From IMG/VR virus record IMGVR_UViG_2065487004_000030: DNA of 4,293 nt, one strand, 5' to 3'. Shown here in pieces: positions 2,210-2,724 of the stretch. The DNA comes from a virus (lineage: Duplodnaviria > Heunggongvirae > Uroviricota > Caudoviricetes). The translations under genes and the position numbers were made by a program. The stretch's first letter is position 1, and each line of letters opens with the position of its first letter. The notes beneath the pieces are model-generated. The model was not told where the DNA came from, ran no database searches, and was given only the letters and a program-made list of their open reading frames with translations.

Positions 2210-2304
2210 TGAATAAAACCACGAGTTCCTGGTGTGCCTTATTCGGCCTGCTAGTTCGAATTTAATTTACGGTTTTTATGTGGTTTTAGGGATAAACACA
2301 AGGA

Positions 2305-2319
2305 TGGTGTCCCCTGCAG
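2305..2319 (-). repeat. attR core: 15-nt duplicate of the 3' end of tRNA-Arg (argW), ending in ACCA
   Basis: Plus strand TGGTGTCCCCTGCAG is the reverse complement of CTGCAGGGGACACCA (T-stem 3' strand + acceptor 3' strand + discriminator + CCA). There is no upstream tRNA body, so this is a fragment and not a gene. Its position between the chromosomal dsdC and the phage gene torI fits an att core. Confidence 0.75.
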
Positions 2320-2343
2320 ACATCTACTTGAAGCAGCAGGGGA
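2310..2343. repeat. Inverted repeat TCCCCTGC ... GCAGGGGA (8-bp arms, 18-bp spacer) overlapping the attR core
   Basis: Arms at 2310-2317 (tcccctgc) and 2336-2343 (gcagggga) are exact reverse complements. The left arm lies inside the tRNA-derived core and the right arm is on the phage side. Confidence 0.5.
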
Positions 2344-2376
2344 TTGATTGGAATGGTGTTTTTTAGATGTGAGAAA

Positions 2377-2398
2377 TATTTTACCCGCTATTTTACCC
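2377..2398. repeat. Tandem direct repeat, 2 x TATTTTACCC (12-bp period), at the 3' end of torI
   Basis: Copies at 2377-2386 and 2389-2398 are identical 10-mers separated by GC. The second copy overlaps the torI stop codon (2393-2395) and last sense codon; the first lies just 3' of the stop. Confidence 0.5.
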
Positions 2399-2593
2399 AT
2401 TGGCGCGGCTTAAGAGCTTATTTTTGAATTCACAATGGTCACGATATAACCATCTTGCTCGCCCGTGGATAACTTTGGCTTTTGGCAGGTCGCCTGACTT
2501 AATCCGGTCATAGATGAAGGTTTTACCAAAGCCAGTATCAGCCATGATGAATTTCAAATCAACCAGTGAATCAGGCTGTAGTTCGTGTTGCAT
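2393..2593 (-). CDS. torI: TorI, prophage excisionase (recombination directionality factor) that also inhibits the TorR response regulator; 66 aa
   Basis: ATG at 2593-2591, stop TAA at 2395-2393, GGAG about 9 nt upstream. Translation MQHELQPDSLVDLKFIMADTGFGKTFIYDRIKSGDLPKAKVIHGRARWLYRDHCEFKNKLLSRANG matches the E. coli TorI sequence as I recall it. Small basic Xis-like protein next to an att core. Confidence 0.9.
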   Translation of the reverse strand: MQHELQPDSLVDLKFIMADTGFGKTFIYDRIKSGDLPKAKVIHGRARWLYRDHCEFKNKLLSRANG

Positions 2594-2612
2594 GAGTGCT
2601 ATCTCCGAATAG

Positions 2613-2628
2613 GGAATCGAACCTGCAA
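2613..2628 (-). other. tRNA T-arm fragment (TTGCAGGTTCGATTCC on minus strand) 19 nt upstream of the torI start; not a functional tRNA
   Basis: Plus strand GGAATCGAACCTGCAA at 2613-2628. On the minus strand it reads TTGCAGGTTCGATTCC, i.e. T-stem 5' strand GCAGG + T-loop TTCGATT + CC, which matches the argW T-arm as I recall it. The flanks do not fold into a cloverleaf: the following bases are CTATT, not the CCTGC needed to close the T-stem. Confidence 0.45.
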
Positions 2629-2693
2629 ATCAGGTAATAAAAATACGCTCTATGACGGCGATGGTAGATCAGGATATTTTAAGAAACTGACAG

Positions 2694-2712
2694 GCCTCAT
2701 CGAGTGTGAGGC
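2694..2712 (-). terminator. Weak hairpin (GCCUCA-7 nt loop-UGAGGC) 13 nt downstream of the yfdT stop; possible partial terminator between yfdT and torI
   Basis: Arms 2694-2699 and 2707-2712 are exact reverse complements. On the minus-strand transcript a UUUCUU run begins about 7 nt after the stem, so this is not a canonical intrinsic terminator. Confidence 0.25.
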
Positions 2713-2724
2713 TGTATGGCTCTA

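Follow-up and report, generated by a model that had tools for sequence, protein, structure and literature searches.

Two stretches that match consecutive parts of the tRNA gene argW flank the excisionase gene torI in the window, the whole 4293-nt stretch of DNA that was analyzed. With a probability of about 0.55, we regard them as two different kinds of object: the known attachment (att) core on one side of torI and, on the other, a selected T-loop box forming the leftmost element of the recombination cassette. This box is probably derived from a tRNA yet kept by selection, and not the leftover half of a split att site. The window corresponds to the right end of KplE1 (CPS-53), a defective prophage of Escherichia coli K-12, read in reverse, and contains in order dsdX, dsdC, the argW–dsdC spacer, attR, torI, yfdT, yfdS, and yfdR. 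The blocks, torI, and the cassette are described below in the minus-strand reading; their coordinates, together with the forms of the box found in relatives, are listed in Table 1.

Table 1. Features of the window around torI and forms of the box in relatives.
Feature	Position in the window	Strand	Sequence or remark
T-loop box	2613..2628	-	TTGCAGGTTCGATTCC, equal to argW positions 46-61; unique exact match
Cassette left edge, common to HK620/Sf6	2629..2643	-	T-run and ATTACCTGAT
torI Shine-Dalgarno sequence	2603..2606	-	GGAG, 6 nt past the box; ATG 9 nt further
torI	2393..2593	-	Excisionase / recombination directionality factor, 66 aa (ORF, RefSeq annotation, PMC3509656, PMC2951348)
Two direct repeats over the torI stop	2379..2398	-	GGGTAAAA; presumed integrase arm-type sites, P arm
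Phage-side sequence abutting the core	2320..2326	-	TAGATGT; corresponds to TTCGATGT in relatives
attR core	2304..2319	-	CTGCAGGGGACACCAT; argW 3' end and one further base; published crossover identity block
Bacterial side of attR	2210..2303		Original argW-dsdC spacer, identical to the unoccupied site of strain LD27-1
Remnant of a different, SfV/SfII-type excisionase gene	2669..2716	-	5' part, ending in YSLTLDEACQFLKIS and a stop; matches annotated 'xis'
Box, Escherichia			TTGCAGGTTCGATTCCC
Box, Enterobacter L012			ATAGGTTCGATTTCTAG
Box, L013, L015, L030, L044			TCCAGGTTCGATT(C/T)CC
Box, Serratia L014			CCAGGTTCGATTCCTG
Box, Pantoea L017			CCGGTTCGATTCCTG
Box, Edwardsiella and P. stewartii (L020-22)			ACAGGTTCGATTCCCTGT
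Box, L071 and L101			Present
Box, Salmonella g341c and Emek			CCAAGTTCGATTCCC
Box, K. aerogenes			CAGTTCGATTCC; one G missing
Box, Erwinia phiEt88			TAGGTTCGATTCCC
Box, Erwinia phage Midgardsormr38			Twice in tandem
Box sequence, other notations			GTTCGATT, GGTTCGATTCC; designed altered version of GTTCGATT, CAAGCTAA

The downstream block (2319..2305, minus strand; CTGCAGGGGACACCA) lies 73 nt past the torI stop (2393), as the preliminary description had placed it. The stretch 2304–2319 is the already known attR core of KplE1: the duplicated 16-nt core published for this prophage, CTGCAGGGGACACCAT, is the same as the sequence in the window (PMC2951348) and is common to HK620, Sf6, CUS-3, and Kapi1 (PMC2951348, PMC8787464). 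In the K-12 lysogen, the core sequence was found at both prophage ends (L004 1722–1742 and 11937–11957), where it matches the 3′ end of argW; strand exchange by IntS would take place inside this 16-nt identity between the attR core and the argW 3′ end. Arm-type repeats flank the core, and xis and int are situated on either side of attP in the phage form. As attP lies between xis and int, torI adjoins attR after integration. The GGGTAAAA repeats are presumed to be arm-type sites because they are repeated here and near the intS start and give way to GGGCATAA in other alleles; the HK620 record annotates an ‘attP’ repeat_region covering the arm-type repeats. A 135-bp attR, containing the core and leaving out the box, recombines in vitro (PMC2951348, PMC3509656), and the primer attR-IHF2, which forms the end of this substrate (PMC3509656), maps to 2413..2394 of the window. 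The box is outside the 135-bp attR and is dispensable for excision in vitro.

The upstream block (2628..2613, minus strand) is located 19 nt from the torI ATG (2593), and 293 nt separate it from the downstream block; both figures agree with those given earlier. The sequence of argW, read from an unoccupied site (L003 541–615) and from the K-12 lysogen, was GTCCTCTTAGTTAAATGGATATAACGAGCCCCTCCTAAGGGCTAATTGCAGGTTCGATTCCTGCAGGGGACACCA, so that the sequence assumed in the preliminary description was right by both readings. The two blocks correspond to argW linear positions 46–61 and 61–75; they are indeed consecutive, as had been claimed, with one C in common. The box covers the end of the variable region, the 5′ strand of the T-stem, the T-loop, and the T-stem 3′ strand as far as its second base. 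The box 16-mer forms, in the K-12 lysogen, a perfect direct repeat, with the argW copy at L004 1712–1727 and the copy in front of torI at 11633–11648, 9.9 kb apart; few other long direct repeats were found across the prophage. The joint expected from a deletion between these two 16-nt T-arm copies, with the 5′ part of argW fused to torI, was present in 0 of 5426 E. coli genomes. The published attL primer attL-KpnI has the box 16-mer at its end and could prime at torI too.

A chance match of the upstream block to a conserved T-arm had been listed among the possible explanations. The sequence GGTTCGAnTCC is very common in genomes owing to tRNA genes, and unrelated tRNAs reach 14–15 matches of 16, which favors a fortuitous resemblance of unrelated sequence. 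However, the 16-mer has a single match in the window with 0 mismatches, the expectation being 0.05 even with 3 mismatches allowed, and by our own estimate any exact 16-mer of a 75-nt tRNA is expected ~1e-4 times in 2 × 4293 positions. The block is also in the core-like orientation, 293 nt from the core, in a cassette targeting the same tRNA, and its recurrence in many lineages effectively refutes coincidence. We have set this explanation aside as having next to no probability, given the exact match of 16/16 and the recurrence over lineages.

As to the tRNA of origin, a 16/16 match to the box was obtained only from argW, and unrelated tRNAs gave 14–15/16, in a panel of 291 tRNAs from phage contigs that is biased because some of the contigs were fetched using the box pattern itself. 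The 5′ TTG, which is the source of the argW-specific match, occurs only in the Escherichia lineage; in the Serratia and Pantoea boxes, the tRNA identity is extended in the 3′ direction by TG instead. The common 12-mer AGGTTCGATTCC is a generic T-arm sequence, shared by 19 anticodon types among the 291 tRNAs of this panel. By its sequence the box is certainly T-arm-like, and its derivation from argW in particular is plausible. No tRNA gene was detected in the window by ARAGORN, and an Rfam scan returned nothing relevant, with snoRNA matches at chance level only. Similarity to the tRNA beyond the T-arm was found neither before the box, by direct reading, nor after it, where the argW 3′ end was looked for.

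The first explanation offered by the preliminary description, a long tRNA identity block in attP split by the insertion of xis, was not borne out. Among 24 genome loci, ~200 viral contigs, and 10 phage records, no relative had a contiguous block of ~31 nt with xis elsewhere. To the left of the core, relatives carry (G/A)TTCGATGT(A/C/T)TGCAGGGG, also written with TGCAGGGGACACCAT, at the place where argW reads GTTCGATTCCTGCAGGGGACACCAT. T-loop-like examples at this place are GTTCGATgtaTGCAGGGGACACCAT in Serratia L014 and GGTTaGATgtaTGCAGGGGACAC in phage Chronis, and K-12 shares GAT left of the core (repeat D2: GATTCC.../GATGTC...). The TTCGATGT-type sequence abutting the core is a degenerate T-loop and, presumably, the left core-type half-site. 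Since attP beside the core is itself T-loop-like, the T-loop is present twice rather than divided. In relatives without the box, the layout of xis, arm repeats, and core is unchanged. A tRNA piece split by torI was also rejected on three further grounds: the box is doubled in tandem in Midgardsormr38, no significant likeness to the argW 3′ end follows it, and the geometry of attP × attB recombination (integration, excision, tandem lysogeny) never sets a bacterial T-arm beside xis. The upstream block thus reads as a conserved copy of the T-loop at the edge of the xis–int cassette, not as the other half of the tRNA.

Relatives of TorI were gathered from phage records, species genomes, viral contigs, and a protein collection. 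Lineages were scored for the box by a regular expression, and its description as conserved is therefore partly a matter of ascertainment; the statistical case for the box is its recurrence, not an alignment. The box, with the consensus CAGGTTCGATTCC(C), was found in ~15 lineages with unlike flanks, 4–7 nt upstream of the Shine–Dalgarno sequence of xis (13 nt in Serratia), and the spacing seen between the box and the Shine–Dalgarno sequence of torI is maintained among relatives. The box-bearing lineages represent three xis types and two arm-repeat types, and argW was the target in every one found. In phiEt88, the identity of xis to TorI is down to 39%, the arm repeats have the sequence GGGCATAA, and the P′ arm repeats are of a non-GTTCG type, yet the box AGGTTCGATTCCC is present. 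L044 has a box region of the L013 type in front of another xis allele. Per lineage, a 30-nt window is expected to hold an exact 10-mer ~6e-5 times; compared with this expectation, its recurrence implies that the 10-mer is either under constraint or was acquired repeatedly.

In viral contigs, the combination of the box, a Shine–Dalgarno sequence (GGAG), and ATG occurred only before this xis family, apart from genuine tRNA genes. Among 169 contigs of the Escherichia type, common polymorphisms occur to either side of the 16-mer (positions -45, -42, -19, and -14 relative to the ATG) but not within it; single-base variants of the box do exist in a few E. coli prophages. Presence of the block at the same position in related prophages, one of the points on which the preliminary description had made its reading depend, holds for ~15 lineages and fails for about as many. 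The box was absent from Dryocola L016, Tatumella, Rouxiella, Arsenophonus, several Pantoea, Chronis, EhrS_49, Morganella, and Erwinia L243; in Dryocola L016, an apparent 23-nt deletion has removed it between CCTGG and GGAG. The box is dispensable, as roughly half of the lineages are without it. An argW-type core was present in every member of the family found. Relatives aimed at other tRNAs were not found among phages searched with the TorI and IntS proteins, genomes, the protein collection, or contigs. The next closest integrases (Yersinia YeP5 and Pseudomonas VW-6S; <39% identity) have a different gene order, and a profile scan of viral contigs returned identical TorI loci only.

Homology of the window to HK620 and Sf6 is confined to 2643..2304, which places the box at the left edge of a portable cassette consisting of the box, xis, the P arm, and the core. 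Cassette replacement has left the SfV/SfII-type xis remnant as a scar close to the upstream side of the box; the remnant also occurs in g341c, Emek, IME10, and K. aerogenes, cut at other points. At least three independent replacement joints lie inside this older SfV-type xis (K-12/IME10, g341c/Emek, and K. aerogenes), and at all of them the box is the first element of the incoming cassette. Its fixed place just before the ribosome-binding site of xis suggests a role in cis in xis expression, as does the fact that it stays the first cassette element. Most likely, the box is a selected cis element acting on xis; it would act on the expression of xis (torI), or on integration, through a protein encoded by the cassette. 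An accessory role of the box in attP is possible.

The second explanation of the preliminary description, a relic of an older crossover, stays as a rival, although we consider it rather unlikely. According to it, the box is a functionless remnant of an ancestor that carried more of the argW 3′ half, or of a crossover in the T-loop with attP upstream of xis, and persists through recency and recombinational spread. Integration scars made of tRNA fragments are common, as is well established. The differing tRNA extensions of the box, 5′ in Escherichia and 3′ in Serratia and Pantoea, resemble the differential decay of a longer T-arm; loss from about half of the lineages and the existence of point variants point the same way, as does the nature of the cassette edge, a mosaic joint where the box region moves between xis alleles. 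What a relic leaves unexplained is the exact 10–13-mer amid wholly changed flanks: the same sequence outlasts the change of all flanking bases, of xis (to 39% identity), and of the arm repeats. Moreover, the sequence after the box has no residual similarity to the argW 3′ end: local alignments of 11 lineages to CTGCAGGGGACACCAT did not score above shuffles (summed p = 0.13). Reasoning from att geometry, the products of simple integration, excision, and tandem lysogeny would not have put the T-arm where the box is, and attP already has its own degenerate T-loop beside the core.

The box is not maintained as a T-arm-like hairpin of RNA or DNA. RNAalifold gave no consensus pairs, and in a count of T-stem pairs 54% of cells were paired, no better than in shuffled or slid controls; only the two G–C pairs beside the loop are retained. 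A promoter element is a further alternative: the box would be the spacer and the -35 side of a cII-dependent integration promoter, or a part of the torI promoter. In the GenBank records of HK620 and Sf6, the box stretch is annotated with a ‘phage integration’ promoter and with a cII site, and the HK620 counterpart of 2629..2643, TTGCCTGATTTGC, is labeled there as the cII site of a putative integration promoter. PMC2951348 describes the torI promoter itself as non-characterised. As the box often follows an intrinsic terminator, a restart of transcription at this place would make sense. Against this stands the result of a consensus scan, in which no sigma-70 promoter-like match was found in 2250–2850. 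In lambda and P22, the cII tetrads are spaced by N6. At the box stretch, the arrangement TTGC-N6-TTGC over -35 with a -10 hexamer, which defines a cII promoter, was not found: the tetrads of HK620 read TTGC-N5-TTGC, K-12 reads TTAC at a commonly polymorphic site, and TTGC tetrads are absent from other lineages that retain the box. The box is, furthermore, shared by phages with unrelated regulatory backbones. A promoter role is highly improbable on these grounds.

If the box acts through a protein of the cassette, the candidate binder that we tentatively propose is the integrase core-binding domain, for which the box would mimic the left half-site of attB. The 12-mer AGGTTCGATTCC comprises argW positions 50–61, directly before (C)TGCAGGG, and equals the left (B) half-site of attB. 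The core-binding domain is favored because target specificity is the sole property common to all box-bearing cassettes. Mimicry of the attB left half-site would also account for conservation that ends exactly where the crossover identity starts, the feature that the preliminary description had noticed. Two points count against the mimic: beside the crossover region, G(A/G)TGT stands in the presumed half-sites of the phage side and of the right, whereas the box, like attB, has GATTC and so departs from the phage-side half-sites in the two bases nearest to that region, and we know of no established role for a lone half-site without an overlap region or a partner half-site. In a more elaborate and improbable version, the box would be an accessory site for the core-binding domain, to which arm-bound integrase would bridge, looping out xis. 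Such bridging, if true, would couple excisionase expression, or the architecture of attP at integration, to the DNA-recognition surface that reads the target; an accessory-site or regulatory logic of this kind has not been described for tyrosine-recombinase cassettes. Assignment of the box as an arm-type site of the integrase was dropped, the arm repeats being GGGTAAAA / GGGCATAA; PMC2951348 assigns the P′ arm repeats with GTTCG to TorI, which also speaks against the arm-type reading.

Binding of TorI to the box through a GTTCG core is nearly as likely as binding of the integrase core-binding domain. The pentamer GTTCG is present inside the box. It is one of the cores of the TorI sites of attL, the others being GATCG and GTCCG, and these sites mediate repression of the intS promoter by TorI (PMC2951348). 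The box could then be an operator at which TorI binds GTTCG and, in some lineages, a second pentamer over the ribosome-binding site, limiting its own synthesis. A second GTTCG/GTCCG was found 12 nt downstream, over the Shine–Dalgarno sequence, in L012, L021, and L020 (K-12 has ATTCG at this position), and the tandem copies of the box in Midgardsormr38 and the partial second copy carried by L012 are also consistent with an operator. Most lineages, however, are without the second pentamer. The box is kept in phiEt88 and in other cassettes with a GFTSKYFYSQI-type excisionase, although the P′ repeats of phiEt88 are GATGTAAC / GCGTTAC / GCGTAAA; that is, it is unchanged when the excisionase and its other sites change. 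Lineages with and without the box do not sort by excisionase clade. The conserved stretch reaches through ATTCC, a sequence that TorI sites lack: at the P′ arm sites, GTTCG is followed by C or T and the flanks vary. An autoregulatory operator of this kind is thus a doubtful explanation.

The KplE1/HK620/Sf6 cassette is a worked model of excision control; the box, being conserved, identical to tRNA sequence, and situated at the ribosome-binding site of torI, provides a concrete candidate for an operator within it. Mimicry of the target half-site, if it is confirmed, would mean that an integration cassette can put its target sequence to a new kind of use; if the box is only a relic, it bears on the acquisition of tRNA sequence by phages. 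No description of the T-arm identity or of the conservation of the box, and no published footprint over the stretch, was found in the accessible literature, and sequence records refer to a putative promoter. Within this well-studied recombination module, the box is a minor curiosity that lends itself to testing; it does not amount to a new kind of system.

Compared with the att core of KplE1, HK620, Sf6, CUS-3, and Kapi1 at argW, the downstream block is the same in every respect, and the papers on these sites describe the same arm repeats, TorI sites, and xis/int arrangement (PMC2951348, PMC3509656, PMC8787464). The upstream box, on the other hand, is no part of the att sites described there.

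Long tRNA identity blocks in attP are represented by phage epsilon34, whose attP carries 43 bp of argU (PMC2629481). Like the box, such a block is a partial copy of the target tRNA that includes the T-arm. It is, however, one contiguous stretch holding the crossover site, whereas the box is located 293 nt off, beyond xis; and, unlike in epsilon34-type blocks, the stretch beside a KplE1-type core has a degenerate T-loop of its own.

Successive integrations at one tRNA gene, as in the tandem accretion of islands and prophages, leave tRNA-fragment scars. Like the box, these are pieces of tRNA 3′ sequence inside an integrated element or at its border, oriented as the gene is. Such scars include the 3′ terminus of the tRNA, beyond which the integrase side of the older element begins, and they belong to the chromosome and decay. 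Unlike these scars, the box is without the tRNA 3′ end, is followed by xis, occurs in virion genomes, and is conserved. The cII-dependent promoter pI of lambda is the system of which the HK620 and Sf6 records make the box stretch an analogue, but pI lies inside xis and the box stretch upstream of it, and the spacing of the tetrads and the conservation are also unlike.

In integrons, DR1 and DR2 of attI are accessory integrase sites outside the crossover site. If the integrase core-binding domain binds the box, the latter would be a similar extra half-site that does not recombine; unlike DR1 and DR2, it is situated ~290 bp away, across a gene, and at a ribosome-binding site.

Directly after yfdT, the window contains the 5' end of an excisionase gene different from torI, ended by a stop. 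The same remnant was found in the IME10, g341c, Emek and K. aerogenes prophages with differing truncation points, so an older xis-int cassette has been displaced by the argW cassette (box, xis, P arm, core and int of argW-targeting phages) several times independently. Outside the window, KplE1 also carries four 15-nt iteron-like repeats, CAGATTTTGACGGGT (8805-8879 of the K-12 lysogen locus L004), within a truncated replication-initiator-like gene; these are presumably the remnant of a lambdoid origin.

Features of the torI-attR region (window coordinates)
Feature	Position	Strand	Details
5' end of SfV/SfII/P22-like helix-turn-helix xis	2669-2760	minus	ends ...YSLTLDEACQFLKIS*
GATGT-cTGCAGGGg-ACACC, an imperfect inverted repeat spanning the crossover region	2304-2326		counterparts in attP of relatives: L007 ~2254-2276 and L020 downstream of xis
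49-aa ORF, homologue of HK620 hkaB / Sf6 gene 17	2251-2400	minus	

The inverted repeat flanking the crossover is perfect in EhrS_49, a relative without the box (GGTGT...ACACC), and in Edwardsiella both arms are altered jointly (GGCGT...ACGCC). This joint change suggests that the arms are the core-type half-sites on either side of a TGCAGGG overlap. The 49-aa ORF starts at the torI stop and continues through the P arm into and past the att core. Integration has left bacterial sequence in place of its 3' portion in the prophage, and the ORF probably does not represent a genuine gene.

A published attL primer, attL-KpnI (…GCTAATTGCAGGTTCGATTCC; PMC3509656), has as its 3' end the 16 bases of the T-loop box upstream of torI; the two sites concerned are L004 1707-1727, within argW of the lysogen, and minus-strand positions 2613-2633 of the window. 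Since it ends in these bases, the primer can also prime upstream of torI; combined with an attR reverse primer, it would yield a product of ~350 bp from unexcised DNA.

Extra copies of the box, whole or partial, were present in two relatives. In Erwinia phage Midgardsormr38, it is duplicated in tandem with a 16-nt period, ACAGGTTCGATTCCCGT CAGGTTCGATTCCCAC (L005 1985-2016), immediately preceding the xis Shine-Dalgarno, and in the Enterobacter locus L012 the box is preceded, at a distance of 13 nt, by part of another copy, GCTCGATTCAT. Two box-bearing contigs, L013 and L030, bear the labels 'MAG: Actinomycetes bacterium' and 'MAG: Parachlamydiaceae bacterium', respectively; their torI-attR ends, with the argW core, are of enterobacterial type, and these assemblies are therefore likely mis-binned or contaminated. 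The box was absent from the Arsenophonus nasoniae relative (L023), in which xis is preceded by ATTGCGTGAGATTTGCGTG (~2455-2480), a TTGC...TTGC direct repeat resembling cII-type sites.
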